From: Thermoplasmatota archaeon
GTDB taxonomy: Archaea > Thermoplasmatota > Penumbrarchaeia > Penumbrarchaeales > Penumbrarchaeaceae
Length of the DNA stretch: 25,422 bases
Direction: 5' to 3'
Assembly (NCBI GenBank): GCA_029762535.1
Contig: JARVGK010000036.1
Coordinates: forward strand, 1 to 25,422
The notes beneath the pieces were generated by a model. That model had not been told where the DNA came from. It did no database searches and saw nothing but the letters and a program-made list of their open reading frames with translations. Position numbers and translations under genes: made by a program. Of this stretch, positions 3,577 through 23,021 are shown piece by piece. Numbering within the stretch: position 1 is the stretch's first letter; every line of letters starts with the position of its first letter.

Positions 3577-3593
3577 TAAAAGGAGAAGGAAGA

Positions 3594-4904
3594 ATGAGCA
3601 CGATGCGCTGCAGGGAAGAAAAACAAGGGATCGACCCGGAGCTAAAGAGGAGGATCGAGGACCATCCCTGCTACAGCGAGAAGGCCCATCACAGATACGC
3701 AAGGATACATCTTCCCGTAGCCCCGAGATGCAACATACAGTGCAATTACTGCAACCGCAAGTACGACTGCCAGAACGAGTCCCGCCCCGGAGTGACGAGC
3801 GCCGTCCTAGCGCCGGAGGAGGCGCTGGAGAGGGTGGAGGAGGTCAGCCGTGTCATGCCCAACCTCTCGGTGGTCGGCATCGCGGGACCGGGGGATCCCC
3901 TGGCGAACCCCGATGAGACCTTCAGGACCTTCGAACTCCTGCGGGATCGTTTCCCGGATATGAAGAGATGTATGTCCACGAACGGCCTCATGCTGATCGA
4001 ACATGCCGATCGCATTCATGAGCTGGGCATTGACCACGTCACCGTCACCCTCAACGCCGTGGACCCAGAGATAGGTGCCAGGATCTATTCCCATGTCATC
4101 CTTGACGGACAGAGGCATTTCGGACGAGAGGGGGCCTCCGTTCTCCTAGAGAGGCAGCTCCTCGGACTCAGAATGCTCAGGGAAAGGGCCATACTCACCA
4201 AGGTGAACATCGTCATGGTCCCTGGCGTGAACGATGATCACATCCCCGTCATCGCCCGGCGCGTGAACGATCTGGGGGCTTTCATCATAAACGTCATCGG
4301 CCTGATACCAACCCCGAATACCCCATTCGCGGACCTGAGAGGGCCTACCCCCTCCGAGAGGAAGCGGGTGCAGGACCAGTGCGAGGGCTTCATAAGGCAG
4401 ATGCGTTGGTGCCGCCAGTGCCGTTCCGATGCCATCGGGCTACTGGGGCATGATCTCTCCTCAAGCATGTTCGAAAGCGGCCCCGTCTTCGGGGAAGGGT
4501 GCAGGATGAAGAAAGATATCATTTCATCGAAAGCGGCCTCCCCGGACCTCGCCAAGGGGCCTGGAAGGATATACGTGGCCGTATCGACGATGGGCGACGA
4601 GGAGGTGAACTCGCCGTTCCCCGGCACGGGAGAGGTCCTGATATACGAGGCGACGAGGGACCACATCATGTTCCTCGAGGCCCGCGATCCATCGCGCTTC
4701 ACGTACGGTGATGGATCGGATAACATGCTCAAGGACGTCCAGGCCGTGATCGCATCGGACCTCGATGAGGAGGCGAAGGATATGCTCGCGGGGCTCGGGA
4801 TCGATGCAGTGGCGTGCTCGGGACCGATAAGGAGCGCCGTCGCAAGGTACGCCAGGGGCAAGGGTATAGATCCACCCGAGGATGATGTGGCCGGCCCGAT
4901 CTGA
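3594..4904 (+). CDS. nifB: NifB radical-SAM metallocluster maturase with a degenerate C-terminal NifX-like domain
   Basis: All NifB fingerprints present: HPC, RIHLPVAP, CNIQCNYC, ESRP, AGPGDPL, CMSTNG, TVTLN, CRQCRSDAIG. C-terminal VAVST...LIYE...FLEAR is NifX-like. Start could be 3573, 3594 or 3603. Confidence 0.9.
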   Translation: MSTMRCREEKQGIDPELKRRIEDHPCYSEKAHHRYARIHLPVAPRCNIQCNYCNRKYDCQNESRPGVTSAVLAPEEALERVEEVSRVMPNLSVVGIAGPGDPLANPDETFRTFELLRDRFPDMKRCMSTNGLMLIEHADRIHELGIDHVTVTLNAVDPEIGARIYSHVILDGQRHFGREGASVLLERQLLGLRMLRERAILTKVNIVMVPGVNDDHIPVIARRVNDLGAFIINVIGLIPTPNTPFADLRGPTPSERKRVQDQCEGFIRQMRWCRQCRSDAIGLLGHDLSSSMFESGPVFGEGCRMKKDIISSKAASPDLAKGPGRIYVAVSTMGDEEVNSPFPGTGEVLIYEATRDHIMFLEARDPSRFTYGDGSDNMLKDVQAVIASDLDEEAKDMLAGLGIDAVACSGPIRSAVARYARGKGIDPPEDDVAGPI

Positions 4905-6754: not shown

Positions 6755-8260
6755 ATGAAGGACGGCGCCAGGGTCATCATCCTCGGGATCGACGCCCTCA
6801 ACTTCGGAGTGCTCGACCCGCTCATCGATGAAGGGGCCATGCCCAATTTCAAAAAGTTGAGGGAAAGCTCGGCCCATTCCGTCATGAACTCGATAATACC
6901 CTCGGTCACGGGACCCGCCTGGACGTCCATTAACACAGGAAAGAATCCCGGCAAGCACGGAATATTCGATTTCGTCCGGGTCGTGGACGGCGCTGTGAAG
7001 GTGAACTCCCGCTCCGACATCGATTCGGAGACGTTCATGGAACTGCTCTCGGGCATGGGCAAGCGCTGCATAACGGTAGGGGTACCCTACACATATCCCC
7101 CCGGTCCGCGTTTCAAAGGCATAGCGGTATCGGATTTTCTCTATCCGGATGTATCGATAACCCCCGAGGATAAGAATGCTTACATAGAGGATTACAAGTC
7201 CCTCGAGGACGCCGTCCACCTGGAGGGCATGGACCTCCTCGACGACCTGCTGGATGTTCAGAAGGGGCAGATAAATTCTGGTAAGGCCCTCTTCGAGAAG
7301 GAGGGATGGGACCTGTTCTTCTTCTACATGCCCGTCATCGATCACTTCTTCCACAAGTTCTTCGGGGAGATAGGGGGCGCGTCCGATGCCTGGAAGAAAG
7401 GGAAGGGACTGTTCATCGAGCTCGACTCCTTCCTGGGATGGGTGCTCGAGCGCCTCGATGACCGCTCCTTTCTCATGATCATATCGGACCACGGCTTCAG
7501 GATGTACGATGGAACGGTCAATCTCAACCGCATCCTCGAATCCTGGGGATACATGAAGAGGTCCGTCTCCTACAGCAAAGGAAAGAAAGCCTCGTCCCGC
7601 GGGTTGGGCGCATACCTGGCGAGGTTCGTCAGGCTGCCTGTCATATTCCCAGTGTTGAAGTTCTTCTACTCCCTGTTCAGAAAGGCGACCAACGCCGCGG
7701 GAAGCGATCTGGGCATAGGCTACGAGGAGAGGATCGACTTCCTCAGGTCTGCCGCTTTCACCCCCACCAAGGAGTCCATGGGCATATACATCAACGATAG
7801 CCAGATGGAGAAGGGACAGTCCAGGGACGATCTCTTGAACAGGCTCCGCACCCTGGAACATGAGGGGGAGAAGGTCTTCGACAGGGTGGTCCGAAGAGAG
7901 GACATCTACTCGGGGCCCCACTTAGATGAAGCGCCCGATCATCTCTTCATTTCGGAGAGGTTCATGTTCGCGGCCAATATTTTCGGCAGGGACCATTTCG
8001 GGCCGGGGGAGGCATATCACGACATGGACGCCGTCTTCTTACTGAAGGGACCATCCGTTCGTCCCGGCAGCCTTCCCGGTCGGCCGGAGCTGGTCGATGT
8101 AGCGCCCACCGTCCTCTCGCTTTTCGGGATCGATCCCCCGTCGGATATGGACGGGCGCATATTGCATGAAGCGATGATGACCGTAAAGAAGGAGCGCAGG
8201 GGCTCCGAGATAGATCGGATCAGGTCGGCCGCCAGGAAGTTCGGTTCCCGTCCGCTGTGA
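6755..8260 (+). CDS. Alkaline-phosphatase-superfamily (type I phosphodiesterase/nucleotide pyrophosphatase-like) protein
   Basis: ILGIDA, PSVTGPAWTSINTGKNPGKHG (Thr nucleophile position, no sulfatase CxPxR), DHFFH, SDHG, terminal YH...DVAPT. No signal peptide. Confidence 0.9.
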   Translation: MKDGARVIILGIDALNFGVLDPLIDEGAMPNFKKLRESSAHSVMNSIIPSVTGPAWTSINTGKNPGKHGIFDFVRVVDGAVKVNSRSDIDSETFMELLSGMGKRCITVGVPYTYPPGPRFKGIAVSDFLYPDVSITPEDKNAYIEDYKSLEDAVHLEGMDLLDDLLDVQKGQINSGKALFEKEGWDLFFFYMPVIDHFFHKFFGEIGGASDAWKKGKGLFIELDSFLGWVLERLDDRSFLMIISDHGFRMYDGTVNLNRILESWGYMKRSVSYSKGKKASSRGLGAYLARFVRLPVIFPVLKFFYSLFRKATNAAGSDLGIGYEERIDFLRSAAFTPTKESMGIYINDSQMEKGQSRDDLLNRLRTLEHEGEKVFDRVVRREDIYSGPHLDEAPDHLFISERFMFAANIFGRDHFGPGEAYHDMDAVFLLKGPSVRPGSLPGRPELVDVAPTVLSLFGIDPPSDMDGRILHEAMMTVKKERRGSEIDRIRSAARKFGSRPL

Positions 8261-8285
8261 CGGGGATCACGAAGGCACCGGGTGC

Positions 8286-8498
8286 TCACTCGAGATATCC
8301 CAGGGCTCTGAGCCTCTCCTTGACCTTCTCCTGGTCCTCGTCGGACATGTCCTCGCCCTCGTCCTCCTCCATGGAGGAGAGCACTTCATCCAGGACGTAA
8401 TTGACGTAGTCCTCCACCGAAGTGAACCCCGTGCTCTTGAGCCTCTCCTTTATCCTGTCGTGTATCCTCTTGTCGATCCTTATCCCGACCTTTTCCAT
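8286..8498 (-). CDS. CopG/RHH protein with an acidic linker and RLRALGYLE tail (paralog 1)
   Basis: KVGIRIDKRIHDRIK...GFTSVEDYVNYVL RHH pattern; GAGGTGG RBS; ATG one base after the sulfotransferase stop. Confidence 0.85.
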   Translation of the reverse strand: MEKVGIRIDKRIHDRIKERLKSTGFTSVEDYVNYVLDEVLSSMEEDEGEDMSDEDQEKVKERLRALGYLE

Positions 8499-8499
8499 T

Positions 8500-9075
8500 T
8501 CAACCACCTCTGTTCCTGTAAAGCGATAGATCGATCGCGTCCCTCATCGAGTCCGCATCTATGTCCCCGTCGAAGAGGTCCCTGATCTCCTCGAAGCTCT
8601 GGTCGGGGTCGGATAGCAGCTCGTTGTAATTGATATAGGCCACCCTCATGTTCTCCGATGAGTTCACGAGCCCCTTGAGGTTCTTGAGATAGGTCCGATA
8701 CAACCTTATCAGCTCATCATCGGGTATGACGTCTGGATCCTCGCCCCTCCTTATCATCATCTTCTTCTGGGACGATACGATCTCGTCGAGGTCCCTCATC
8801 ATGAACACGACCCTGTACTCGAAGCCGGATGGAAGGTGCTTCATCAACTCGCCCAGGACCTTCACCGCCCTGCCCCTGGCCTCCGGCAGCCAACCTTGGT
8901 CCCCGGGCAGCTTCTTCACCCTCTCGAACTCGTAATATCCTTTGGGATTGTCCACATCGGCGGTCCTGACATCATCCTTGAGGGGGGCGATCCCCCCCTT
9001 ATCGAGCATGCTCATCATCAAGGACGTTCCCGACCTGGGAAGGCCTGTCACCACCGTTATGTAATCCCTGCCCAT
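8500..9075 (-). CDS. PAPS-dependent sulfotransferase family protein
   Basis: 5'-PSB loop GLPRSGTS, NPKGYYE, 3'-PB motif MMRDLDEIVSS, terminal YNELL. Confidence 0.9.
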   Translation of the reverse strand: MGRDYITVVTGLPRSGTSLMMSMLDKGGIAPLKDDVRTADVDNPKGYYEFERVKKLPGDQGWLPEARGRAVKVLGELMKHLPSGFEYRVVFMMRDLDEIVSSQKKMMIRRGEDPDVIPDDELIRLYRTYLKNLKGLVNSSENMRVAYINYNELLSDPDQSFEEIRDLFDGDIDADSMRDAIDLSLYRNRGG

Positions 9076-9085
9076 AGATCATCAC

Positions 9086-9619
9086 TCATTCCATCAATCC
9101 GAGCTGTTTCACCTTTGATATGATCGCATCGACCTCCTGCTCGAGCGTCATCTCGTGGGTGCGCAGGACGAGGTCCGGCTTCAAGGGCTCCTCGTAAACT
9201 CCATCGTAGCCGGTGAGGTTCGTGATCTCGCCCTTGATTGCCTTGGCATAAAGGCCCTTTGGATCCCTCTTTATCCTTACCTCTTGCGTGGTCTCGAGAT
9301 AGACCTCCATGAATTCGCCGATCTCCTCCCGGGCGAAATCCCTGACGGCCCTGTAAGGGGATATGAGCGATACCACGTTCGGGACGCCGTGCTTGGTCAG
9401 GAGCCGGGCGTGATTGATAACTACCCTGTTGTGCATCTCCCTGGCCTCTTTCGAGAAACCTATGTCCGGATACAGCTGTTTTCTCACCGTATCCCCGTCG
9501 AAGACCTCTATCGGGAGGCCCATATCGGAGAATCTCCCTTTCAGGCCCTCGGCCAGGTAGCTCTTTCCGGCCCCGCTGGGCCCCGTCAACCATATCGTGA
9601 ATCCTTTTCCGTCGCACAT
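9086..9619 (-). CDS. cysC: Adenylyl-sulfate (APS) kinase
   Basis: IWLTGPSGAGKS, DGD, SLISPY, RDPKGLY, TGYDGVYEEP. Confidence 0.96.
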   Translation of the reverse strand: MCDGKGFTIWLTGPSGAGKSYLAEGLKGRFSDMGLPIEVFDGDTVRKQLYPDIGFSKEAREMHNRVVINHARLLTKHGVPNVVSLISPYRAVRDFAREEIGEFMEVYLETTQEVRIKRDPKGLYAKAIKGEITNLTGYDGVYEEPLKPDLVLRTHEMTLEQEVDAIISKVKQLGLME

Positions 9620-10567
9620 CTAATTGCCTCCGTTCATCCTGTATATCTCCTTGAACATCAGATCCCTCAATTCCTCCACCCTTTCTCGACCGTGCACCAC
9701 ACCGACGACGTCGTCCTTGCCACCGGCGTTGAAGCCCATCGCCTTCAATCTCCTTATCAGACCGCCCATGTCCATCGTGGACGGGTCCCGGATCCTGAGG
9801 TAGGTCTGCGCCCTTCCGTTGAAATCCCGGTTGATGGCCAGCGCCGCGTCGCAGCCCTCTTTGGAGACCGCCTTTCGGGCGAGCTTGCTGATTATATTGA
9901 ACCGGTGCTCGAAATCCAGGACCATCACCCTGCCGTGCATGATGCCCGCGTCGAAAACGTCGCGCATCGCATCGCGTATGCGTTCCACATTGGCGTTGAG
10001 CCCTGGGTCCTCGAGAAGGCGGTCGATGTCGTCCAGAGCGCGTACCGATGCCTCCACGGAATCCTTGTCCCCGACCACGTAACTGGAGTCCAGAAGCCTG
10101 ACCGCTCTCTGGAATTCCTCCGGATCGCGGCCCGAGGATGCGAACGCTCTTTTAAGCAATGGGTGGTCGAGCGCCTTTATACCCACATCGCCGAATGCTC
10201 CCAGAACGGATAGATCATCCCATGAGGAGTAGGTCTCCGAGACGACGGTGCTGCAGGAGGGATAGTCTGCCTGGTTGGCGCCATCTTTCACCGGATTGAC
10301 CTGACGCACCCCCGGGATCTGATCCTGGGGCTGGTGATGGTCGATGAAGGTTATGTCCGCGCCCGGCAGGTCCAGGCCCTTGGTTATGTTGAGGTCGAGG
10401 ACGAATATCGGCCCCTTTTCGTTCCTCATCGCCGTAATCATCCCTTCATCGAACTCGAACTCTCCTATCTCCGGGGTCATGTTAATGAAATGCTCGGGCT
10501 TGAATATCCGGACGATCTTCGCCGCCGAGCATATGCCATCCGTGTCCCAGTGATGGATGATGAGCAT
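9620..10567 (-). CDS. DHH-family phosphoesterase, probable PAP (3'-phosphoadenosine 5'-phosphate) phosphatase
   Basis: HHWDTDG, LDL, IDHH and C-terminal AGGK (DHHA1); lies between sat and cysC. Confidence 0.85.
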   Translation of the reverse strand: MLIIHHWDTDGICSAAKIVRIFKPEHFINMTPEIGEFEFDEGMITAMRNEKGPIFVLDLNITKGLDLPGADITFIDHHQPQDQIPGVRQVNPVKDGANQADYPSCSTVVSETYSSWDDLSVLGAFGDVGIKALDHPLLKRAFASSGRDPEEFQRAVRLLDSSYVVGDKDSVEASVRALDDIDRLLEDPGLNANVERIRDAMRDVFDAGIMHGRVMVLDFEHRFNIISKLARKAVSKEGCDAALAINRDFNGRAQTYLRIRDPSTMDMGGLIRRLKAMGFNAGGKDDVVGVVHGRERVEELRDLMFKEIYRMNGGN

Positions 10568-10571
10568 GCTT

Positions 10572-11717
10572 TCACTCCACGAAGGGGTTCTCGAAGGAGC
10601 GCAAGGCGTCGAAGACCTCCTTCCTCATGTGATGCGGTTTCGGGACCTCGCCCGTTTTGAGCATCTCCCTCATCTTGGTCCCGGAAAGGGAGTCGTGATG
10701 CTCCTTGGGGTGGGGGCATATCTTCGCATTGACGATGTTCCCGCACTTATGGCAGTAGAAGAAAGCCTGGAAGGCCATGGGTTCCATGCCTAGATCGGGG
10801 AACTGCTTGAATATCTCCTGCGCTTCATAGGGCCCGTAATAGTTACCGACACCTGCATGGTCCCTTCCGATAATGATATGCGTGCAGCCGAAGTTCTTCC
10901 GCATGATGGCGTGATGTATGGCCTCCTTGGGGCCCGCGTACTTCATCTCGTAGCGGAGGATGGACATGTGCGTGATCTCCTTGGGGAAGTAATGCTTGAT
11001 CAGCTCCTCGTAGGTCTTGAGTATCACGTCATCCCTGAAATCGCCTGATTTCTTCTTCCCTATGACCGGGTTTATGAACAAACCGTCCACGAAGGTCGCC
11101 GCGGTCTTCTGCAGGAACTCGTGGCCGACGTGGGAGACGTTCCTAGTCTGGAACGCGACAATGGTCTTCCAGCCCCTCTCGTTGAAAAGGACCCTCGTTT
11201 CGTGAGGGGTCAGGTAATGGTCCGGGAAAGGCGCATCCATTTCGGCGATCTGCTCCAGCTCCCCTCCGATCAGGGTATCCCCCATCTCCATCACGCGCTT
11301 GACGCCTGGATGGGCGGGATCCTCGGTCCCGAACACGGACCGGGCATAACCGGCCTTGTCGTATGTGTATATGTCCTCCACATACATCCTCGCTATCGGC
11401 TTACCCCTCGAGAGCAGGATCACGGAATCCCCCTCCTCGAAATCGATGGACCCCCTGTCCATGTCGAGCACCGATGGGATCGTCCAGGGGGTGTCGTCGG
11501 GGAGCCTCATATCCACCAGCACCGACTGCAGTTCGTCGGACATCATGAAACCCGACAGCGGGGAGTAAACCCCATCGGCAATGGACATGACGTCAACAGC
11601 GTTAACGTCCCTTATCTCGATCTTCGGGTACTCCCCGATCTCCTCGAGTACCCTGTCCCTGACCTTTTCGCCAAGCTTCCTTCTGACCAGTTTTCCACCG
11701 TGCGGCCTGTTGACCAT
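10572..11717 (-). CDS. sat: Sulfate adenylyltransferase (ATP sulfurylase, homo-oligomeric Sat type)
   Basis: PHGGKL, FQTRNVSHVGH, YAGPKEA, GRDHAG, Zn site CHKC...CPH, SGTKMR. Confidence 0.97.
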   Translation of the reverse strand: MVNRPHGGKLVRRKLGEKVRDRVLEEIGEYPKIEIRDVNAVDVMSIADGVYSPLSGFMMSDELQSVLVDMRLPDDTPWTIPSVLDMDRGSIDFEEGDSVILLSRGKPIARMYVEDIYTYDKAGYARSVFGTEDPAHPGVKRVMEMGDTLIGGELEQIAEMDAPFPDHYLTPHETRVLFNERGWKTIVAFQTRNVSHVGHEFLQKTAATFVDGLFINPVIGKKKSGDFRDDVILKTYEELIKHYFPKEITHMSILRYEMKYAGPKEAIHHAIMRKNFGCTHIIIGRDHAGVGNYYGPYEAQEIFKQFPDLGMEPMAFQAFFYCHKCGNIVNAKICPHPKEHHDSLSGTKMREMLKTGEVPKPHHMRKEVFDALRSFENPFVE

Positions 11718-11733
11718 CGTATCACTCCGTGTA

Positions 11734-11961
11734 TCAATCCAGATAGCCCAGTGCCCTGAGCCTGTCCTTCACCCGGTCCTCCTCCTCCTTGGAGAAGACC
11801 TCTTCCGATGTTCCCTCCTCGAGAGATGCCAGGACCTCCCTGAGAACGTAGGTAACGTAATCGGAGACCGATGTGAAGCCCGTCCCCTCTATCCTCTTCT
11901 TTATGTTCCTGTACAGCGGGGTCGGTATCGAAACCGTCGTATGCTTCCTTTGCTCGGGCAT
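11734..11961 (-). CDS. CopG/RHH protein with an acidic linker and RLRALGYLD tail (paralog 2)
   Basis: TTVSIPTPLYRNIK...GFTSVSDYVTYVLRE; GAGGTGG RBS upstream of ATG 11961. Confidence 0.88.
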   Translation of the reverse strand: MPEQRKHTTVSIPTPLYRNIKKRIEGTGFTSVSDYVTYVLREVLASLEEGTSEEVFSKEEEDRVKDRLRALGYLD

Positions 11962-11980
11962 TTTGGACCACCTCGATCGA

Positions 11981-12027
11981 TGAATGCGTCTTAATGACAT
12001 TTAATGCGATTGCATGAAGATATATAA
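11981..12027 (-). promoter_or_regulatory. Promoter of the RHH-sat-DHH-cysC-sulfotransferase-RHH operon with a candidate operator array
   Basis: TTATATA box (12021-12027, minus strand); near-palindrome TAATGC-GATT-GCATGA at 12002-12017; AATG/CATG repeated every 10 bp. Confidence 0.65.
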
Positions 12028-12044
12028 TATTTATCCCGGTGCTG

Positions 12045-12827
12045 TCAGTTGATAAGGAACACCGAACAGGGCCTCTTCCTCGCGAAGCCGGACCTGAGGT
12101 GGAAATATCCCTTCTTGCCCATGCGTCCTATGACTATCAGGTCGAGCTTATTCTCGTTCACGATCTCTCGTATGGAGCTCTCGGGCCTTTCCTTGATCAC
12201 CTGCTCGAACCTGATCCTGCGCGAGGAAACGACCCCCTCGAGCGCCTCCTCGGTGTTTTCCGCCTTCGGATCCGCTATGAAATAGGACCTCAAGGACGCG
12301 TTCGTCGCGGACCTGAGCGCCTTGGCCGCATCGATCAGCCTATCGCTTTGCCGGGTATCCGCCAGGAACAGAGCGATCCTTTTGATCGGGCGGTCGTGTC
12401 TCTCTATCCAAACAGGGACGGTCGAACGGTCCATTACCCGATATTTCAACAGGTCGTAGGATCCGTATTCCATCATCAAGGCGTCGGCTTCGAACTCATC
12501 GACCGCCCCCAGTATCGTCTCGGGGATCGGTCCCTTCCTGACGACGAACTCTTCTGGTCTGGAGCCCAGGATCTCGGCCACATTTTTCTTGATGATCCTC
12601 TTTGCGACCTGCTCCTGGGTCCTGACCATATTTCTTTGGAACATCTCCTTGTCATGCTCCGTGAGCACGTGCATCACCTGCTCCCCGACGTCATCATACA
12701 GCGTATCATCGATGAAATACGAGATGATCAGCCTACTGCCTATCATGGCCGAGAGCTCGGCGGACCTCTTGAGCGCCATTTCGGGCAGACCTTCCTTCGT
12801 GACGGGGACCAGCAACCTCTTGAACAT
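12045..12827 (-). CDS. Tandem universal stress protein (USP)
   Basis: MFKRLLVPV start, two USP-like halves, DLIVIGRMG, CSVFLIN end; TGATG overlap with the DASS stop. Confidence 0.88.
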   Translation of the reverse strand: MFKRLLVPVTKEGLPEMALKRSAELSAMIGSRLIISYFIDDTLYDDVGEQVMHVLTEHDKEMFQRNMVRTQEQVAKRIIKKNVAEILGSRPEEFVVRKGPIPETILGAVDEFEADALMMEYGSYDLLKYRVMDRSTVPVWIERHDRPIKRIALFLADTRQSDRLIDAAKALRSATNASLRSYFIADPKAENTEEALEGVVSSRRIRFEQVIKERPESSIREIVNENKLDLIVIGRMGKKGYFHLRSGFARKRPCSVFLIN

Positions 12828-14209
12828 CACCAAACACCTATCCATTTCCAGTAAGTATAGACCACGACGAGCATTATTGCAACTGTAACCGCATTGGCGA
12901 TCATCCCTGCCTTGAGCATGTCCCTGGGACGGAAATAGCCCGAGGAATAGGATATGAGGTTCCCGGGTGTCGAGAACAGGAACATGAACGCGAGCCCTCC
13001 GGAGAGACCTACCAGCATCGAGCCCATCTCCGGGGGCAGACCTGATGCGATGAACACCGCGAAGCCGATGGGAAGCAGTATGGACACCGCGGCCGTGTTC
13101 GACATGAACTCCGTCAGGACCTTTGTCAGGACGATCATCAGCAGTATCGAGAGCAGGGCGCTCCCGGATGTCAACAGGATGACCTTGTCCGCAAGCCAGA
13201 GAGCGGCCCCCGAATCGGCGAGATGTATGCCCATGGATATAGCGCCGCCGTACAGAAGGATTATCCCCCAGGGTATCCTCTCCTCCACTTCCTTCCATCT
13301 CATCCCCCCTGCGATGAATATCATGATCGCCCCGATCAAAGCGATGATGGACAGTTCGACATCGATGAGCTGGGGTAGGAATATGAACATGGCTATTATC
13401 AAGGCGAGGACCGCGATGATCATCTTCTTATTCCAACCGGGTGATGGTATCTGCTTCAGCTCATCGCCTATGACGCTCCTGGCCCTCTCCACATTCGCCC
13501 TCTCCGGGGGAAAGACGAGTATCAGGACCATCCAGACAGCGAACAGAGATAGTATCACAATAGGCAGGGAAAGCGTCATCCATCTCAGGAAGTCCACCTC
13601 GATCCCCTCGAGCCTGAGGAACGCTATCGTCAGAGGGTTTCGCGCTCCCCCCAGGGGCGTTCCCAGGCTTCCGATGGTGCAGCCGTAGGCCGCCCCTATC
13701 ATCATCCCCTTGGCGAGATTGCTCTTCAGGGGCACCAGCCCCATTCCTAATATCGTATAGGTCAGGACAGGGACGATCAGTATGATGACGCCATGCTCGG
13801 GCATTATGAACGAGAGCAGGGCCCCGGAGACCATTGTCCCGAGGACCATGAGCCTCGGCGAGGATCCCATGGCCTTGAGGAAGACGAGGGAGACCCATCT
13901 GTGCAGATCTGTCCTCTCCACGGAGGAAGCGATTATGAACGCGCCTATGAGGAAGAACACCGCGGAGTTGCCGAAGGATTGGAAGGTGGACCTCACCGTT
14001 GTCGCACCCAGAAGCAAGGGGAGTATAAGAACGACGATGCCCGCAAGGCCAAGGGGGATGGGCTGTAGAATGAAGACGGCAGCGGCGAATACGAGAACGC
14101 CGAACATCGCCTGGCCCTCATATGACAGACCGTCGGGCCTGGGAAGGACGAGAACGATGAGGAGCAGCAGGATCGGAAGGGCGTACTTCGCTGCTTTCCT
14201 CATATCCAT
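12827..14209 (-). CDS. DASS/SLC13 sodium:sulfate (anion) symporter
   Basis: FFLIGAFIIA, GSLGTPLGGARNP, IPWGIILLYGG, LTEFMSNTAA, STPGNL; start at MDMRK after GGTGG. Confidence 0.93.
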   Translation of the reverse strand: MDMRKAAKYALPILLLLIVLVLPRPDGLSYEGQAMFGVLVFAAAVFILQPIPLGLAGIVVLILPLLLGATTVRSTFQSFGNSAVFFLIGAFIIASSVERTDLHRWVSLVFLKAMGSSPRLMVLGTMVSGALLSFIMPEHGVIILIVPVLTYTILGMGLVPLKSNLAKGMMIGAAYGCTIGSLGTPLGGARNPLTIAFLRLEGIEVDFLRWMTLSLPIVILSLFAVWMVLILVFPPERANVERARSVIGDELKQIPSPGWNKKMIIAVLALIIAMFIFLPQLIDVELSIIALIGAIMIFIAGGMRWKEVEERIPWGIILLYGGAISMGIHLADSGAALWLADKVILLTSGSALLSILLMIVLTKVLTEFMSNTAAVSILLPIGFAVFIASGLPPEMGSMLVGLSGGLAFMFLFSTPGNLISYSSGYFRPRDMLKAGMIANAVTVAIMLVVVYTYWKWIGVW

Positions 14210-14338
14210 CAAAACCACCCGATCCCAGGTTCCCTGTGTATGCAGGCCGATTTCCCTTCCTCGGATTTGAAGGTTGCGCTCTCCAGGTCGGTTCTCATTA
14301 TCGTCATGTCGAACAGATAGAGTTCCAATCGTTAATAA

Positions 14339-14367
14339 TATATAATGCCATTGCATTACATTACATT
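14339..14367. promoter_or_regulatory. Divergent DASS/sbp promoter with a candidate operator
   Basis: TATATAA at 14339-14345; perfect-arm palindrome TAATGC-CATT-GCATTA at 14343-14358; CATT four times at 5-bp spacing, ending just before the sbp ATG. Confidence 0.65.
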
Positions 14368-15360
14368 ATGACAAAAAGATACCTTATGCCCCTGGCAATG
14401 ATCCTGCTGCTGCCAATGATGTCGGGATGCCTCGGCGGTGACGATGACTCGGGCACCATAGTGCTCTATGGCTTCTCCGTCAAGGGAGAGCTTATCGACG
14501 ACATGGTGATCCCGGCCTTCCGGGAGAGGTACAAGGCCGAGACCGGGGAGGACATCAAGTTCCAGACGGTCTATGCCGGGTCTGGGACGGTGACCAAGCA
14601 GGTCATCGTCGGTGCCCCGGCCGAGGTCATGATACTCTCGACCGAATGGGACGCCCTCCAGCTGCGCGATGCCGGGCTCGTAACGACGGATTGGAGGTCC
14701 TACCCACATGAGGGGACCTTCTCCACATCCCCCTGGGTGATATTGACGAGGCCGGGCAACCCCAAAGGCATCCATGACTTCAGCGACCTCGCCCGTTCGG
14801 ATGTGCGCCTCGTATCCGCGGATCCCATCACCTCAGGAGGCGCCCAATGGTCCATATTCGCGATATACGGGTCGGAGCTGAGGAGGACCTCCGCGATCGA
14901 GGGATCCCCCAACGAGACTCGGGCGGTCGAACTATTGGATGATATCGTCGATAATGTGGACAGCTGGCAGGAATCCGCGAGAAAGGCGCTCTCCCAGTTC
15001 GTCTTCGGATACGGGGACGCCTTCATAACGTACGAGAACGAAGCGCTTCTGGGGATGGCGCAGGGGGAGAAGTTCGAGATCATCTATCCTCATTCCACTA
15101 TACTCTCGGAGCACAAGGCGATAGTGGTTGACGAGAACGTCGATGAGAAGGAGAGGGGGGCGGTGGAGGCGTTCATGGAATACCTGTTCTCGGACGAGGT
15201 GCAGAATATGCTATCCGTTTACGATTTCAGGTCACCGGATGAGAGCTACAACGACGGCTTCGAACGAATTGAAGACCCGTTCACCGTCGAATATCTGGGC
15301 GGCTGGGAGATCGCCAAACCGGAGATAATAGACGGAATATACGCACCGATGCGGAGGTGA
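14368..15360 (+). CDS. sbp: Sulfate ABC transporter substrate-binding lipoprotein
   Basis: MSGCLG lipobox, GSG, GNPKGIHDFSDL, DPITSGGAQW, GDAFITYENEA; probably a leaderless start. Confidence 0.92.
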   Translation: MTKRYLMPLAMILLLPMMSGCLGGDDDSGTIVLYGFSVKGELIDDMVIPAFRERYKAETGEDIKFQTVYAGSGTVTKQVIVGAPAEVMILSTEWDALQLRDAGLVTTDWRSYPHEGTFSTSPWVILTRPGNPKGIHDFSDLARSDVRLVSADPITSGGAQWSIFAIYGSELRRTSAIEGSPNETRAVELLDDIVDNVDSWQESARKALSQFVFGYGDAFITYENEALLGMAQGEKFEIIYPHSTILSEHKAIVVDENVDEKERGAVEAFMEYLFSDEVQNMLSVYDFRSPDESYNDGFERIEDPFTVEYLGGWEIAKPEIIDGIYAPMRR

Positions 15361-16190
15361 GACCGTTGCCGGAGACGCGAAGCAGGCTCTCGCCGCTCTT
15401 AAAATGGTCGATCGTCAGCTTCGGCATCGTCTGCTTCATCCTCATCATAGTGCTCCCCGTTTCATCGATGTTCAAATTCGCATTAGAGGATGGACCGTAT
15501 GGATTCTGGAAGGCGATAACCACGGAAAACGCCCTCAACGCCCTCAAGAACTCGCTGCTGATGGCGTCCCTGGCGACCGGCATCAACCTGGTTGTGGGGA
15601 CGACAATAGCCTTCTCGCTGACCAGGTACCGTTTCCCGGGATCATCCATATTCAGGGCTCTCATCGACCTCCCGATAGCGATCCCCGCATCGGTCGTGGG
15701 ATTGGCATTGATGATGTTATACGGACCCAAGGGCCTTCTGGGGCCGTTCTTCGAATCGAACGGGATCCAGATCATATTCGATCTGCCGGGGATCGTCCTC
15801 GCCCACGTATTCGTCACTTTCCCTTTCATGGTCAGGGCGGTCTCCGTGGTCATCGAGAAGTTCGACCATGACCTGGAGGATGCGGCGGTGACGTTGGGGG
15901 CCAATGGGTTCCAGACCTTCTTCAGGGTGATGCTGCCCTCGATAAAAAGCGGGTTGATCGCAGGGTCGGCCCTCACTTTCACCAGGTCCTTGGGGGAGTT
16001 CGGAGCCACGCTGATAGTGTTCGGAGGGGCCATGCACCTGAGGACCGGCCCCCTCTACATGTACTACCTTTCGGACTCGGCCTTCGATTTCCAGGGGGCC
16101 ACCTCTGTGGCTATATTGTTGATGGTGGTCCCGTTCGTGCTCCTTTTGACCGTCAACGCGATAGTGAGCAGGATGGAGGTGTCCGGATGA
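15357..16190 (+). CDS. cysT: Sulfate ABC transporter permease
   Basis: RYRFPG, LIDLPIAIP, FVTFPFMVR, EDAAVTLGA (EAA loop), RSLGEFGA. Confidence 0.88.
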   Translation: MRPLPETRSRLSPLLKWSIVSFGIVCFILIIVLPVSSMFKFALEDGPYGFWKAITTENALNALKNSLLMASLATGINLVVGTTIAFSLTRYRFPGSSIFRALIDLPIAIPASVVGLALMMLYGPKGLLGPFFESNGIQIIFDLPGIVLAHVFVTFPFMVRAVSVVIEKFDHDLEDAAVTLGANGFQTFFRVMLPSIKSGLIAGSALTFTRSLGEFGATLIVFGGAMHLRTGPLYMYYLSDSAFDFQGATSVAILLMVVPFVLLLTVNAIVSRMEVSG

Positions 16191-17188
16191 GAGCCGACCT
16201 CTCCCTGGATGGCATATCAAAGGCGTTCGGAGGCGAAACGGTCCTCAAGGACCTGGACCTGACGGTCGAAGAGGGGAAGATGGTATCCATCCTCGGGCCG
16301 TCGGGTTGCGGGAAGTCCACGACCCTGAGGATAATATCGGGCCTGGTCCGACAGGACCGGGGGGCCGTGAGACTGGGAGGGAAGAGTCTTGACAACGTGC
16401 CTCCCCACAAGAGGAGGATAGGCTTCGTCTTCCAGAGCTATGCTCTGTTCCCACACCTGGACGTGGAGGAGAACGTCAAGTTCGGGATGAAGGTGGGGGG
16501 TATGAAGAAGGAGCATGTCAAGAGGCGGACGGACGAGCTCCTGGAGCTTGTGGGAATGTCGGACATGAGGGGAAAGAGACCGTCCCACCTGTCCGGCGGA
16601 CAGAAGCAGAGGGTGGCGATAGCAAGGGCGCTTGCCATAGACCCTCAGGTCCTGCTCCTTGACGAGCCCTTCGGTGCCCTGGATGTGAAGATAAGACGGA
16701 GGCTCAGGAGGGACCTCAAGGCCCTCCAGAGGGATCTGGGATTGACTTCCGTCTTCGTGACGCACGACCAGGACGAGGCTTTCGAGCTTGGCGACACCAC
16801 GGCGGTCATGAACAATGGGAGGATAGAACAGATAGGCAGGCCTCGGGATCTGTACGAGAGGCCTTCGACGAGCTTCGTCGCGCGCTTCGTAGGCAACGTG
16901 AACGCCATAGAGCTTCCGGGAGGGGATCGGACCACGGTAATGGTCAGGCCGGAGGACATCGTCATGATGCATTCCTCCCCGGATCGCAAAGGCGGGGTCA
17001 AAGGGACATTGATAAATTATGTGTATCTGGGGCCGATCATCGAATGCAATGTGAGGTTGACCAACGGCGAATCGTTGAACGTCATCATAAGCCGGGAGGA
17101 GTTCAGGATGAGGAATTACCGCAGGGGCGACGAGGTGAACATAATCATTCGGAAGTTCAGTTCGTTCAGCGATGAGGAGGGGGTATAG
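16187..17188 (+). CDS. cysA: Sulfate ABC transporter ATP-binding subunit with a TOBE domain
   Basis: GPSGCGKS, LSGGQKQR, LLLDEPFGALD, FVTHDQDEA, VRPED. Confidence 0.9.
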   Translation: MRADLSLDGISKAFGGETVLKDLDLTVEEGKMVSILGPSGCGKSTTLRIISGLVRQDRGAVRLGGKSLDNVPPHKRRIGFVFQSYALFPHLDVEENVKFGMKVGGMKKEHVKRRTDELLELVGMSDMRGKRPSHLSGGQKQRVAIARALAIDPQVLLLDEPFGALDVKIRRRLRRDLKALQRDLGLTSVFVTHDQDEAFELGDTTAVMNNGRIEQIGRPRDLYERPSTSFVARFVGNVNAIELPGGDRTTVMVRPEDIVMMHSSPDRKGGVKGTLINYVYLGPIIECNVRLTNGESLNVIISREEFRMRNYRRGDEVNIIIRKFSSFSDEEGV

Positions 17189-17401
17189 TTGAACGAGAGG
17201 AAGATGCGTTCGCTCGTCAAATCGATAACCTATCGGATCATCTGCATTATGTCGCTTTCGATAGTCACCTACATCATCACGAGGGATCTCATGCAGATGG
17301 GGCTCATAGTCCTCATCTTCCAGACGATCCAGACGGTCCTCTATTATCTGCATGAACGCGTATGGAACAATGTCCGATGGGGATCCCGACCTCCTGCTTA
17401 A
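17189..17401 (+). CDS. DUF2061-like small membrane protein
   Basis: RSLVKSITYRI...YYLHERVW..VRWG pattern; GAGGAGG RBS; abuts the cysA stop. Confidence 0.8.
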   Translation: MNERKMRSLVKSITYRIICIMSLSIVTYIITRDLMQMGLIVLIFQTIQTVLYYLHERVWNNVRWGSRPPA

Positions 17402-17412
17402 GGTCCGGACCC

Positions 17413-20400
17413 TCACTCCTCGATGACAGGCTCTGTGGGATAGACCCTGAGATAAGGCCGCCTCCGCCTCAGGGCCATGAACATGACAAATATACTGAAG
17501 AACAAGATGACCGCAAGGGAGATCGCAAGATAAAGGGGCCATTTCGCCGGCGAAGGAGGATCCCTCTCGCGAACATCAACGCTCTCCCAAGGACCGGTAA
17601 CACCATAACCCTCGATCCCCACATAGAACACATACCTGCCCGCATCCTCGAAGGTTATATTGTGATACCTGCCAGGTGATGAATAGATCACAGATCCTTC
17701 GAACCTGACCTCAAGGACAAGGGAAAGAAAACCGGGATAATCATAATACCACACGTTCACGGCCACCGTGTCGCCCACCCGATGATCGGATGGCCAGGGA
17801 TCGAGATCGATCCGGATACCGATCCCCGTCAGGTTCAGACCCACTACGACCTCCATCTCATATGTGCCGGATGCACCGCCCACTACGGATACCGTGATGT
17901 TGAAAAAATATCTACCAGCATCCCCGATCACAGGTTCGAGGATCAATCGGCCTCCGCTAATGGAAGCCCATCCCGGGGCGGATACGAGAGAATAAGATAA
18001 TGTCCCGTTCTTCGCGTAATCAGTCAGGATCGAAATGACGATAAGATCGTTCTCACGGAGGTTGATGGACTTCTCGTTCAACAGAGCAGGGGGATCGCCC
18101 ATTCGTACATCGATGTGCAGCGAAATATCGATATGTTCGCCGCCGGGATCGAAGGCGCGCAGAACAAGAGAATGTATGCCTACATGATCATCCCTGGGAG
18201 AAAACCTCAGCATGTCATCCTCGATGGATATCCAGACATACTTGCTCTCCACTAAAGAGTAGGAGATCCTCTCCCCTTCGGGATCCGCAACGCCCGGATC
18301 GAACGTAAACACGTCCCCGCACTCGACCATCAGATCGATCCTCTCCGGTCCCGTAGGAGGTTGGTTCCGGACCATCACGTCAAGAGGAAATGAATAAAGG
18401 GCATAGGACCCGTTGTTATCCGATACATTGATGTCAACCCATTGACGGCCAACATCGGTACTTACCGGATTTATCAGAAGAAGACCCTCATCGTCTATGG
18501 AGCATAGGCCTTTGCCAGACCAGGACGCGTTGAAGGAGAACGTATTCTGGTTCGGATCGTAAACCGTTATGAGGTATTCGAAAGGCTCGCCCACATACGC
18601 CACGCTCGCGTTCACCTCCAATATCACGGGAGGGACGTTGAACGGTATGATCCTTATGAAGACCTCAATGAAGCTGACGGAACCGTTATTATCCGAGGCC
18701 GAGATAACGACGCTCCAGACACCAGTATGATCCGCCCGGGCACGGAAAAAGAGCATGTTCCCGTAAAGAACCGAGACGTTGAACGGGGCGTTCTTGCTGT
18801 GAACACCCAGCTCGACCGGATCCCCGTCCGGATCGAAATAGGTCAGGAAATACCTTGTGGGCTCATCCGGATACGCCACGATCTCCTCGACAGGATCTAT
18901 CACCGGATTCCGGTTCACTCCGATCCTGAACTCGGTCCAGTTACGGGTCCCGTTGTTGTCGTTCGCGGTGATGTTGAAGGTTGTGTATCCCTCGTACTCA
19001 TCGGTTCCAAGAAAAGAGAAGGCTCCAGTCAGGGGATCCAATTCGAAGAATACATCCCTCGATGCTTTTATCTCGAAGGTGGGAGTGTCACCGTCGGGAT
19101 CGTATGCCTCGAAGGTGATGTTCAGCCGCTCGCCGGAGTTGATCCTGTACAAATCCTGAACAGACCCTATCTGCACCCTCCTGTTCCAGGGTTGACCCCA
19201 TGGTACGATGAGGGGCAAGTGATCGATAGAATCGTGATCTATGATCACAGGATTATCCACGATCCCGTTCCCGTCCCAATCCGTGTAGTTCTCGATCCCT
19301 GTCCAGTAATTGCCCCAATCAGGATCGTTGAAGGAGTTGGATCCGTTATCGATCACATGGATCGAGTTGTCCATGAAGGAATTCTTGAATATTCTCGTCG
19401 TTTTCGTATCGTTCAGCTTCATCGCGATCCCGTTATCGATAAAGACGTTATCGTTGATCCTCGAATCCGAGGATCCCTCCATCCTCAATGCGATGTCGTT
19501 ATCCTCGAAAACATTCCCATAAATCCTTGTCCTGGTGGACTTTAAGTCAAATATTGAGCACATTGATCCTTGAAAAAATGTAGAATGTATTTGTAATTGA
19601 TCTGATTCTTTAGAATATACCCCCAATGAGATATTATCAAGTGATTGGTTCTTTATTATCATACCTTTTGTCTTGATTGTATGTATAGCATATGTAGAGT
19701 TTCTGATATGATTTCCATCCAATACCATCAAGATCCCCAATTCAATATGAAATCCATAGTTCACATTGGATACGATATTGTTATTGAAGTTTGACCTCCC
19801 ACGATAAAAATAAAATCCATAGTTCACTTCATTTATTGAGTTATTGAAAATATCTGCATATACTTCTCCTGTATGTCCTGCTACGTTCAGATCAATATGG
19901 AAAGCTGTATCGGCTCTAAAAATTGTATTGTTGTAGATCGATATATTACGATCCTTCCATAACGAGTCCGAATTTGGTCTTTTAAGGATGAAACCTGATC
20001 TTGCATCCATGATTTTATTGGATGAAAGTACTAATTGGGTGAAATATGTGATATCCACGCATATCTTTGATGAGATAATAATATTATTTTCAATCTCTAA
20101 AAAGTAATTTGAAATCCCAGCTATTGCCGTGTCAGATATATTATTGAATGTATTTCTAACTATTCTTGTACGATAAGTTGGTATTCCGTGAATACCGTAT
20201 GTACATGATATGAATGTATTGTTTGTAATATATACTTTATCTATGTATTTATTTTCTGTTGATATCTTACTTTTTCCGATCATTATTGCACTGTTAGAAA
20301 TATTTTCAAAATGTGAATTATTTATCCTGTGATTATAATATATTGAATTAATGATATTGTTGAACAGATGTATCCCATTATTAGAACAATTATGAAAATT

Positions 20401-20940
20401 CGAGGATTCTATTAATGTGTTATTGCATTGATTAATATGTATTCCTGTTACGATACCGTTCATAATAGTATCATACATGAAGAAATCATCGGATTCTACC
20501 ACTACACCGGATTGGGAAAAATCTCCGTAACCTGCATAATATATTTGGGAATGTAAGATTCTCAATAAAGAGCCATGTCTTGAAATAATATTATAATTAT
20601 AACCATTATTGTTAGAATAATTGCCTGTACTATTCAAAGTCAGGATCGAGTTGTTGAGGAGCAAAGATCCTCCGTTTTGAATTTCTATCTTTATGGATCC
20701 ATCGTATGTTGTGTTGAATATAACGGTTGCATTGTCGAAAATATAGAATTCTCCCTCACCTATCGTGATATTCTCGATGACGTAATACGTTCTCGAAGTG
20801 ATGTTGGTATAGTTGTAAGATGAGCTCTCAGCATTAGATCGGACTATAATATCAGGATCGGCTGATGATTGATCGGGAAATATCGATATCAAAAGAAGTA
20901 AAAACACCATCGATACCGAAGCCCGATGTTTATAAACCAT
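17413..20940 (-). CDS. Large surface glycoprotein/adhesin: parallel beta-helix (NosD/CASH-like), tandem cadherin/Ig-like repeats and a C-terminal anchor
   Basis: Signal peptide; N/I-rich beta-helix repeats ending GNYW...DHLPL; repeated DPDGD / ASDNNG / NxPP motifs; TM helix followed by RRRR; many N-x-S/T sequons. Confidence 0.88.
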   Translation of the reverse strand: MVYKHRASVSMVFLLLLISIFPDQSSADPDIIVRSNAESSSYNYTNITSRTYYVIENITIGEGEFYIFDNATVIFNTTYDGSIKIEIQNGGSLLLNNSILTLNSTGNYSNNNGYNYNIISRHGSLLRILHSQIYYAGYGDFSQSGVVVESDDFFMYDTIMNGIVTGIHINQCNNTLIESSNFHNCSNNGIHLFNNIINSIYYNHRINNSHFENISNSAIMIGKSKISTENKYIDKVYITNNTFISCTYGIHGIPTYRTRIVRNTFNNISDTAIAGISNYFLEIENNIIISSKICVDITYFTQLVLSSNKIMDARSGFILKRPNSDSLWKDRNISIYNNTIFRADTAFHIDLNVAGHTGEVYADIFNNSINEVNYGFYFYRGRSNFNNNIVSNVNYGFHIELGILMVLDGNHIRNSTYAIHTIKTKGMIIKNQSLDNISLGVYSKESDQLQIHSTFFQGSMCSIFDLKSTRTRIYGNVFEDNDIALRMEGSSDSRINDNVFIDNGIAMKLNDTKTTRIFKNSFMDNSIHVIDNGSNSFNDPDWGNYWTGIENYTDWDGNGIVDNPVIIDHDSIDHLPLIVPWGQPWNRRVQIGSVQDLYRINSGERLNITFEAYDPDGDTPTFEIKASRDVFFELDPLTGAFSFLGTDEYEGYTTFNITANDNNGTRNWTEFRIGVNRNPVIDPVEEIVAYPDEPTRYFLTYFDPDGDPVELGVHSKNAPFNVSVLYGNMLFFRARADHTGVWSVVISASDNNGSVSFIEVFIRIIPFNVPPVILEVNASVAYVGEPFEYLITVYDPNQNTFSFNASWSGKGLCSIDDEGLLLINPVSTDVGRQWVDINVSDNNGSYALYSFPLDVMVRNQPPTGPERIDLMVECGDVFTFDPGVADPEGERISYSLVESKYVWISIEDDMLRFSPRDDHVGIHSLVLRAFDPGGEHIDISLHIDVRMGDPPALLNEKSINLRENDLIVISILTDYAKNGTLSYSLVSAPGWASISGGRLILEPVIGDAGRYFFNITVSVVGGASGTYEMEVVVGLNLTGIGIRIDLDPWPSDHRVGDTVAVNVWYYDYPGFLSLVLEVRFEGSVIYSSPGRYHNITFEDAGRYVFYVGIEGYGVTGPWESVDVRERDPPSPAKWPLYLAISLAVILFFSIFVMFMALRRRRPYLRVYPTEPVIEE

Positions 20941-20970
20941 AATGATCCCTATATTATCACTCCGTTATAT

Positions 20971-22638: not shown

Positions 22639-22790
22639 AGGCACCACTTCCTAATTAGACCGGATCGTATTTGACGGGATCGAATACATCCCCCCGGATG
22701 CACGCATTTCTTTGTTTTCGGCTCCGGTCAAGGGAATATAAGTCCAAATAATATATAAAACCACCGAAAAAAACCCCAAAAATAAATATA

Positions 22791-22815
22791 TATTATATTA
22801 TATTATATTATATTA
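22791..22815 (+). repeat. (TATTA)5 microsatellite within an AT-rich intergenic tract
   Basis: tattatattatattatattatatta read directly; flanking 22745-22845 is almost all A/T. Confidence 0.9.
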
Positions 22816-23021
22816 TAATAAATATAAAAACTATATAGAAAAAGAAGGAGGGGATCCCAACCCCCTGACTGGAACCATGAACATAATTAAACCCTCAAGA
22901 GATAGGATCTCGCGACATTGTATGAATATCACAGTCGGGGTTTTTCATAAAAGGGATCCCCCTCCAGGGGTGGGATCGCCTCTTCCACAACAGGTTAATT
23001 TTCATACCATCTATGAAAGCA

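Follow-up and report, generated by a model that had tools for sequence, protein, structure and literature searches.

A probable self-contained sulfation locus with attached sulfate importers and a minimal sulfotransferase gene in a Thermoplasmatota archaeon

Background

Many anaerobic archaea encode an ATP sulfurylase, an adenosine 5'-phosphosulfate (APS) kinase and a phosphatase for 3'-phosphoadenosine 5'-phosphate (PAP), yet do not grow on sulfate, and two experimental papers have left the purpose of these enzymes open. A locus combining these three genes with a small sulfotransferase gene and two sulfate importers is described here from a Thermoplasmatota archaeon (assembly GCA_029762535.1). 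It lies in a stretch of 25,422 nucleotides, called the window below, which forms the first 25.4 kb of contig JARVGK010000036.1 (C32); the contig continues beyond it, and the genome amounts to 2.96 Mb with a completeness of 93%. The organism is most closely related to uncultured Thermoplasmatota of the 'ex4484_6' type.

A cluster of the order copG - ATP sulfurylase (ATPS) - pApase - type I phosphodiesterase - APS kinase (APSK) was described in several archaea by Jin 2021 (PMC8268124), with Pyrococcus yayanosii PYCH_17520-17560 as an example. In that work PYCH_17520 was labelled a putative copG factor and PYCH_17550 was 'speculated' to degrade pyrophosphate (PPi). A sulfotransferase gene was seen beside the cluster in other archaea, and the cluster was termed 'assimilatory' though no reductases were found. 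Fig. 1B of that paper also includes the cluster of the cultured Aciduliprofundum boonei (aboo_0230-0235). For Thermococcus onnurineus TON_1704-1707, Moon 2015 (PMC4463584) lists TON_1705, between APS kinase and PAP phosphatase, as a pyrophosphatase, citing Lee 2009.

ATPS, APSK and the PAP phosphatase PAPP were characterised by Jespersen 2023 (PMC10322725) in Methanothermococcus thermolithotrophicus, which assimilates sulfate via an AprAB-like reductase of 3'-phosphoadenosine 5'-phosphosulfate (PAPS) together with Fsr. The same study showed that sulfate does not sustain growth of Methanocaldococcus infernus, which has a similar gene set, and proposed for such organisms a sulfation route with a 'non-canonical sulfotransferase' (the hypothetical 'route 1c', for which no enzyme was named).

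Gene identities, their conservation and co-occurrence and the absence of reductases could be read directly from the genomes analysed here. Taken together, they make it likely that the window holds a self-contained, probably self-regulated sulfation locus, whose transfer activity, acceptor and regulation, like the role of a neighbouring gene of the alkaline phosphatase (AlkP) superfamily, we infer.

Results and discussion

Organisation of the locus

Genes were identified from a listing of open reading frames (ORFs) and from Pfam and NCBIfam profile scans of all but a few of the window ORFs. Six genes of the minus strand followed each other in the order ribbon-helix-helix (RHH)-like 1, Sat, DHH-family PAP phosphatase, CysC, 191-aa sulfotransferase and RHH-like 2. 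They were separated by only 0-16 nt, so that the operon reads as one six-gene unit. A DASS symporter gene and a Usp gene were located upstream on the same strand, and the genes of a sulfate-type ATP-binding cassette (ABC) importer diverged from them. On the other side, a plus-strand gene of the AlkP superfamily, of nucleotide pyrophosphatase/phosphodiesterase (NPP) type, was convergent to the operon and outside it (Table 1).

An earlier note on this DNA, drawn from the sequence alone, had listed two importers, sat, cysC, a DHH phosphoesterase, a sulfotransferase and a convergent AlkP gene. All were recovered at about the same positions; the start of the DASS gene was corrected, and the RHH-like and Usp genes were added. 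The note had also reported the window to lack genes for an APS/PAPS reductase, a sulfite reductase and a cysteine synthase, and none was detected among the scanned ORFs, which were all but a few.

In the proposed pathway, sulfate would be taken up through the DASS symporter and the ABC importer, Sat would form APS and CysC would convert it to PAPS. With PAPS as donor, the 191-aa sulfotransferase would place the sulfo group on a hydroxyl or amine of an acceptor, for which a molecule of sugar or glycan type is the best guess. PAP, the inhibitory product, would be hydrolysed by the DHH enzyme, yielding AMP and phosphate. Expression of importers and operon would be coupled by the leading RHH-like protein and a palindrome common to both promoters.

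The DHH protein matched the crystallised PAP phosphatase of M. thermolithotrophicus (MtPAPP; PDB 8A8K) along residues 1-302, its whole length, with an E value of 1.8e-63. The Mn-binding residues of MtPAPP are His6, Asp8, Asp10, Asp57, His76-His77 and Asp127 (PMC10322725); H5/H6, D8, D10, D58, D76-H77-H78 and D127 were invariant in 13 homologues of the window protein. Judged by sequence, it is closely homologous to this characterised enzyme and has every metal ligand named for MtPAPP.

Sulfation versus sulfur assimilation

Siroheme sulfite reductase (PF01077, NIR_SIR) was encountered in none of the 26 genomes of the order, a set that included the source genome (G000) and underlies all order-wide counts below; the same search was positive in 11 out of 14 control genomes. 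NIR_SIR was equally lacking in five further Thermoplasmata genomes carrying the cluster (0/5), and AprA gave no match in the source genome. The lack of a sulfite reductase in organism and order argues that PAPS is not made there for sulfur assimilation. Dissimilatory sulfate reduction was considered and rejected, there being no AprA and no DsrAB-type domain.

The only strong PAPS_reduct-domain (PF01507) protein of the genome (158 bits; 649 aa; contig C4, 64363-66309; locus L001) was composed of PUA, TGT_C2, PAPS_reduct and two [4Fe-4S] ferredoxin domains (PRK13795 type). Such a protein was found in 25 of the 26 genomes, including every genus without Sat and PAPP. Being present regardless of these genes, it behaves as a housekeeping protein and not as a dedicated PAPS reductase, and its function probably lies in RNA modification, not in a sulfate pathway. 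The genome search for reductases suggested by the earlier note thus returned no NIR_SIR, no AprA and, as sole strong PAPS_reduct protein, this PUA fusion.

The 191-aa sulfotransferase

Homologues of the sulfotransferase formed a large family of 7096 clusters at E <= 1e-5, under the NCBI name 'sulfotransferase'. Members were about 190 aa long, and roughly 50% identity was kept between archaea and Chloroflexota, Planctomycetota and others. In an alignment of 35 homologues, the 5'-phosphosulfate loop PRSGTS (PKxGTT-like), which follows strand 1 (E6-11), displayed invariant P13, R14, G16, T17 and S18 and a nearly invariant S15. R94 and S102 were also invariant; as a candidate 3'-phosphate motif they had the canonical spacing (R94-x7-S102, 8 residues) and were located at a strand-helix junction of the model. 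The motifs DNPKGYYEFE and LYRNR were invariant and specific to the family, the candidate catalytic-base residues D42, E49 and E51 were all invariant, and no cysteine was conserved.

The AlphaFold2 (AF2) model of the protein (pLDDT 87.6) gave TPST2, 3-OST-1, Teg12 and cytosolic SULTs as top Foldseek matches. Among 43 matches at E <= 0.001 almost all were PAP-bound sulfotransferases. One homologue (P0169, 449 aa) was fused to an APS kinase domain, which ties the sulfotransferase to PAPS. Other fusions of the same subtype involved a class I methyltransferase (~398 aa) or a thioredoxin domain, the latter mainly in Planctomycetes (~340-400 aa).

The gene context of relatives offered weak hints about the acceptor. 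In a soda-lake Thermoplasmata metagenome-assembled genome (MAG; L062, 7989-11491), the sulfotransferase gene, an AlkP gene (424 aa, Ser nucleophile) and a gene for a 507-aa NAD-dependent sugar epimerase/dehydratase followed in a row on one strand. In L110 the sulfotransferase gene was followed by an epimerase gene. These epimerase genes hint at a nucleotide-sugar acceptor. Together with members of the AlkP clade located in glycan clusters and with exporter genes in relatives, they make an acceptor of sugar or glycan type the best guess.

The exporters concerned are of the ABC-2 type. In genera g2, g5 and g7 of the order, two pairs of genes, each for an ATPase and a permease, lay divergent to the sulfotransferase gene (L091, 4003-8543; corresponding positions in L089-L094, L096, L099 and L100). 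No orthologues of these permeases were found in the source genome.

Distribution and gene order in relatives

Within the order, the sulfotransferase was detected in 13 of the 26 genomes and PAPP likewise in 13; 12 genomes shared both and 12 had neither. The two exceptions were genomes of 76% completeness. In eight relatives the two genes were at most ~2.5 kb apart. The earlier note had read the locus as serving sulfation and not assimilation, and this presence of both genes in 12 of 13 carriers, in clusters, speaks for it together with the reductase searches.

The recurring set in relatives consisted of the sulfotransferase, Sat, PAPP, CysC, DASS and Usp genes, and, in those where it was detected, of an RHH-like gene preceding Sat (RHH-like 1 being traced in relatives' and PAPP-centred loci through homologous DNA only). 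The DASS-Usp pair was conserved in the relatives' clusters, and a divergent SBP-CysT-CysA importer (SBP, substrate-binding protein) was kept beside the set in two of them (G025 and G021). Compared with relatives, the window order was rearranged: the sulfotransferase gene comes after CysC and is followed by the duplicated RHH-like gene.

A scan centred on PAPP uncovered the arrangement Sat-PAPP-AlkP-CysC in 30 of 79 loci, from Methanocaldococcus, Thermococcus, Archaeoglobaceae and others. The slot between PAPP and CysC was filled by a sulfotransferase of the present family in eight other Thermoplasmata loci. This family was not detectable in five genomes of the same scan, four with the AlkP-type cluster and M. 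indicus without a middle gene.

RHH-like proteins and regulation

Two small RHH-like paralogues bracketed the operon. RHH-like 1 shared 62-87% identity with the gene that stands before Sat in loci of Thermococcus, Methanocaldococcus, Archaeoglobaceae and Thermoplasmatota (L121, L139, L148, L087 and others). These proteins displayed an acidic tract followed by an invariant RLRALGY(L)D tail, which reads RLRALGYLE in RHH-like 2. The start of the latter lies 1 nt past the sulfotransferase stop codon. The small proteins may act as regulator, sensor or substrate.

The palindromic pattern ATGCNATNGCAT / ATGCNATTGCAT was present in exactly two copies in the window, where 0.03 were expected. Both copies lay beside the TATA-like box of a sulfate promoter, and genome-wide they were the sole two in an AT-rich promoter context. 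The AlkP promoter had no copy, and the exact pattern retrieved none in the relatives' loci. The presence of the palindrome at two promoters fits common regulation of importers and operon, and the leading RHH-like protein and the shared palindrome probably couple their expression.

Alternative uses of PAPS

That the locus makes PAPS for sulfation, not assimilation, is well supported. Some observations nevertheless weigh against the reading as a whole. For the small proteins, neither Pfam nor a PDB profile search gave a significant match that would confirm an RHH fold (best E in the PDB search 0.17; a Vps46 MIM peptide at 0.9 was at chance level), so that this fold rests on the sequence pattern and on the 'copG' label of Jin et al. 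The genome is only 93% complete, and the absence of reductases is therefore not absolute. Neighbours of the bacterial sulfotransferase genes were heterogeneous (P-type ATPase, histidine kinases, McrBC, SDR, AFOR) and gave no clue to the acceptor. Furthermore, we know of no member of this sulfotransferase family with an established activity, acceptor or sulfated product.

Two other fates of PAPS were considered. The locus could serve assimilation if PAPS were reduced by a non-canonical enzyme, such as the PUA-PAPS_reduct-ferredoxin protein, and sulfite by a reductase that profile searches do not recognise. The missing fraction of the genome leaves some room for this, the candidate protein is present on contig C4, and M. 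jannaschii homologues of such proteins are cited in PMC10322725 as reducing APS or PAPS in vitro. However, the protein occurs with or without Sat and PAPP, its PUA and TGT_C2 domains are of RNA-binding type, NIR_SIR is missing from the order and from the five further carriers, AprA from the source genome, and the operon itself includes a sulfotransferase; M. infernus, moreover, has a similar gene set and no growth on sulfate (PMC10322725). We consider assimilation very improbable. Even less credence is given to the possibility that the small sulfotransferase sulfonates a thiol, on thioredoxin or a carrier, and so delivers sulfite by a CysH-independent route. Many homologues are indeed fused to a thioredoxin domain, but the family lacks a conserved cysteine, its fold matches are O- and N-sulfotransferases, the operon has no thioredoxin gene, and sulfite would have no apparent use in a genome without sulfite reductase.

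The convergent AlkP-superfamily gene

The AlkP protein had no signal peptide and conserved the bimetal catalytic set D13, T52 (a threonine nucleophile), D196, H200, D245, H246 and H422. Its AF2 model (pLDDT 90.8) had Xac NPP (Foldseek E 5e-16), the phosphonoacetate hydrolase PhnA and ENPP1/3 as best folds. It gave no PF00884 match, and no C/S-x-P-x-R formylglycine motif was present at the nucleophile, which reads P-S-V-T-G-P-A-W. The gene encodes an intact NPP-type enzyme, not a formylglycine sulfatase; the missing motif and the NPP fold led to rejection of a sulfatase or eraser role. The earlier note had cast the enzyme as eraser or sulfuryl relay, for which no support emerged: the nucleophile is an NPP-type threonine, there is no sulfatase motif, the gene is not co-conserved in the order and has no operator copy, and PPi removal is the role given in the literature to the relatives embedded in clusters.

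In a quick maximum-likelihood tree, the AlkP genes embedded between PAPP and CysC formed a clade of their own with 100% support, and the window gene fell elsewhere, with P0242-P0250. It was 25-30% identical to the embedded group. Its His68 was replaced by leucine in the embedded clade and shared with the clade fused to sulfotransferases.

Several observations connect AlkP genes with the sulfotransferase. The earlier note had mentioned that this sulfotransferase subtype is fused to AlkP-like domains in some bacteria, and such fusions are real: among proteins longer than 335 aa with this subtype, 64 of the 120 best matches also carried PF01663, usually with TPR repeats. The AlkP-TPR-sulfotransferase proteins were ~850 aa long and occurred in Dokdonia, Winogradskyella, Psychroserpens, Rubellicoccus and deltaproteobacterial MAGs. 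In one of them, the sulfotransferase half was 48% identical to the window protein and the AlkP half aligned to the window AlkP with E 8e-21. The closest AlkP homologue (57% identity), on a metagenomic contig, occupied the same convergent position beside RHH-ST-CysC-PAPP-Sat-RHH (ST, sulfotransferase) and an ABC importer. AlkP genes were also located near the sulfotransferase gene in L015, L024, L062 and L077, and another AlkP clade adjoined it in other Thermoplasmata. As the linked groups fall in several separate clades of the tree, the association recurs across the family and was not inherited once. A single-sequence AlkP scan of the genome contigs gave four distant loci only. Co-occurrence of AlkP with sat and sulfotransferase genes, which the earlier note had made a test of the link, was thus seen as synteny, at the 57% homologue and in the 30 PAPP loci, but did not extend to a tracking of the sulfotransferase within the order.

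On this evidence, a functional link between the convergent NPP-type enzyme and the sulfation module is proposed tentatively, as quite possible though short of probable. If linked, its chemistry would be phosphoryl or nucleotidyl, acting on PPi, on PAP(S)/APS or on an acceptor linked to a nucleotide or phospho group, and not sulfate-ester hydrolysis. A bolder version, in which a conserved two-enzyme module is made up of the minimal sulfotransferase and an enzyme of the NPP-type AlkP family, the latter handling PAPS or such a linked acceptor, could supply the 'non-canonical sulfotransferase' that Jespersen et al. postulated for PAPS-making methanogens and Thermococcales without a recognisable sulfotransferase; we regard it as unlikely and mention it as speculation.

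The gene may instead be a bystander, a phosphodiesterase of a glycan or envelope pathway merely next to the operon. Against a link speak its own promoter without the shared palindrome, its convergent orientation, and its distribution in the order, where homologues (<=33% identity) were present in genus g3 without the sulfotransferase and absent from g2 and g7 with it. The next members of its clade (40% and 36% identity) also sit by Wzx-like flippases in glycan or glycosyltransferase clusters. Yet the adjacency is retained at 57% protein identity, several distinct AlkP clades are fused or adjacent to sulfotransferase or PAPS genes, and chance adjacency within 8 kb would be of the order of 1% (a rough estimate, for one or two copies per 3-Mb genome). 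A bystander appears rather unlikely on balance. Somewhat less likely again is that the AlkP enzyme acts as an inorganic pyrophosphatase, drawing the unfavourable reaction of ATP sulfurylase forward and so serving PAPS synthesis, not the sulfotransferase step. This is the role listed for the embedded TON_1705 in PMC4463584 (citing Lee 2009) and speculated for PYCH_17550 (PMC8268124); the arrangement Sat-PAPP-AlkP-CysC is common, and no soluble pyrophosphatase of family I or II was found in the genome. A membrane H+-pyrophosphatase is present, however (contig C8, 38924-40897), relatives with the same operon do without AlkP, and the window gene belongs to another clade than the embedded group, with His68 in place of leucine. 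Bacterial fusions, moreover, pair AlkP with a sulfotransferase, which yields no PPi, and Archaeoglobaceae loci hold PAPP-AlkP-CysC without an adjacent Sat.

Features of the window

Table 1. Genes and candidate operators of the locus, in window coordinates
Feature	Position	Strand	Basis and remarks
AlkP-superfamily NPP-type phosphodiesterase/pyrophosphatase-like protein, 501 aa	6755..8260	+	PF01663 E 1e-28, 101 bits vs cutoff 23; membership in the system uncertain
RHH-like small protein 2, 70 aa, last operon gene	8286..8498	-	Paralogue of 11734-11961 (50% identity)
Minimal PAPS-type sulfotransferase, 191 aa	8500..9075	-	PF13469 E 3e-10, 41.1 bits vs cutoff 27
APS kinase CysC, 177 aa	9086..9619	-	PF01583 E 9e-48; TIGR00455 190.7 bits vs cutoff 138.7
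DHH-family PAP phosphatase (PAPP), 315 aa	9620..10567	-	E 1.8e-63 to PDB 8A8K
ATP sulfurylase Sat, 381 aa	10572..11717	-	PF01747 E 1e-89 and PUA_2; NF003166 498 bits vs cutoff 387
RHH-like small protein 1, 75 aa, first operon gene	11734..11961	-	Homologue of the 'copG' gene leading archaeal clusters
Palindrome ATGCGATTGCAT, candidate operator	12004..12015		Beside TATA-like box upstream of the Sat operon
Usp-domain protein (tandem Usp)	12045..12830	-	PF00582 E 3e-12; co-transcribed after the DASS symporter
DASS/SLC13 sodium:sulfate-type symporter	12827..14209	-	PF00939 E 6e-67; TIGR00785 240 bits vs cutoff 198.6
Palindrome copy 2, ATGCCATTGCAT	14345..14356		Divergent DASS/ABC promoter region, directly after TATA-like box
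Sulfate/thiosulfate-type ABC substrate-binding lipoprotein (SBP)	14368..15360	+	PF13531 E 9e-32; best NCBIfam TIGR00971 143 bits, just below cutoff 155.5
Sulfate ABC permease, CysT/W type	15357..16190	+	TIGR00969 244 bits vs cutoff 240
ABC ATPase with TOBE domain, CysA-like	16187..17188	+	PF00005 E 3e-38 and PF08402; TIGR00968 307 bits, below cutoff

The most likely start of the DASS gene is 14209 and not 14356; in the long ORF, the Pfam match sets in at residue 54. The SBP, starting at 14368, has a lipoprotein-like signal peptide ending in Cys.

Outside the locus, the GC content fell from ~0.56 to 0.32-0.45 at 19000-23000 of the window, over the 3' part of a gene for a 1175-aa NosD/beta-helix protein and a neighbouring clostripain-like peptidase gene. 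At 2273-4904, genes for a redoxin (AhpC/TSA-like), a 239-aa ORF and a radical-SAM protein were overlapping or adjacent. The radical-SAM protein gave a weak, sub-threshold match to a NifB-type FeMo-cofactor-binding domain, and no nitrogenase genes were present in the window.

Comparison with described systems

The presence of a sulfotransferase gene inside the operon, the attached importers and the lack of a sulfite reductase in the order argue that the module exists for sulfated products. The analysis highlights two targets: the highly conserved ~190-aa sulfotransferase family, with more than 7000 clusters in bacteria and archaea, and the NPP-type family that recurs in association with this sulfotransferase or with PAPS genes. 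Identification of the acceptor would reveal a new class of sulfated archaeal or bacterial molecules.

The sulfotransferase resembles TPST, heparan sulfate 3-OST, Teg12/StaL and the SULTs in its fold, its 5'-phosphosulfate loop and a putative Arg/Ser 3'-phosphate motif. It differs from them in being 191 aa long, against ~250-300 aa, in an identity of only 11-18% to solved structures, and in its own DNPKGYYEFE and LYRNR motifs. With the bacterial AlkP-TPR-sulfotransferase fusions the locus shares the sulfotransferase subtype (48% identity) and the broad AlkP family, whereas the fusions are single polypeptides with a TPR spacer and an AlkP domain of a separate clade with a serine nucleophile.

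Like the copG cluster of archaea, the locus has a contiguous series of leading small gene (62-87% identical), Sat, DHH PAP phosphatase and CysC (11961 down to 9086), and an AlkP/NPP gene is associated with it. Unlike in that cluster, PAPP and CysC abut with no phosphodiesterase gene between them, and AlkP lies outside the operon, is convergent to it and belongs to another clade. The sulfotransferase gene stands inside the operon after CysC, a second RHH-like copy follows it, and both sulfate importers are attached. The label 'assimilatory' used by Jin and Moon is contradicted by the reductase-free genomes analysed here.

As in M. thermolithotrophicus, the genes for ATPS, APSK and PAPP are homologous and clustered. 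The AprAB-like PAPS reductase and Fsr of that organism were not found here, and a sulfotransferase would occupy the PAPS-consuming role, matching 'route 1c'. Jin 2021 and Jespersen 2023 have already described the core cluster. In the variant seen here, the operon itself contains the minimal sulfotransferase gene and twin RHH-like genes, two importers are attached, an NPP-type gene is convergent to it, and the order yielded no sulfite reductase. With its recognisable sulfotransferase, the locus clearly exemplifies the route of Jespersen et al.

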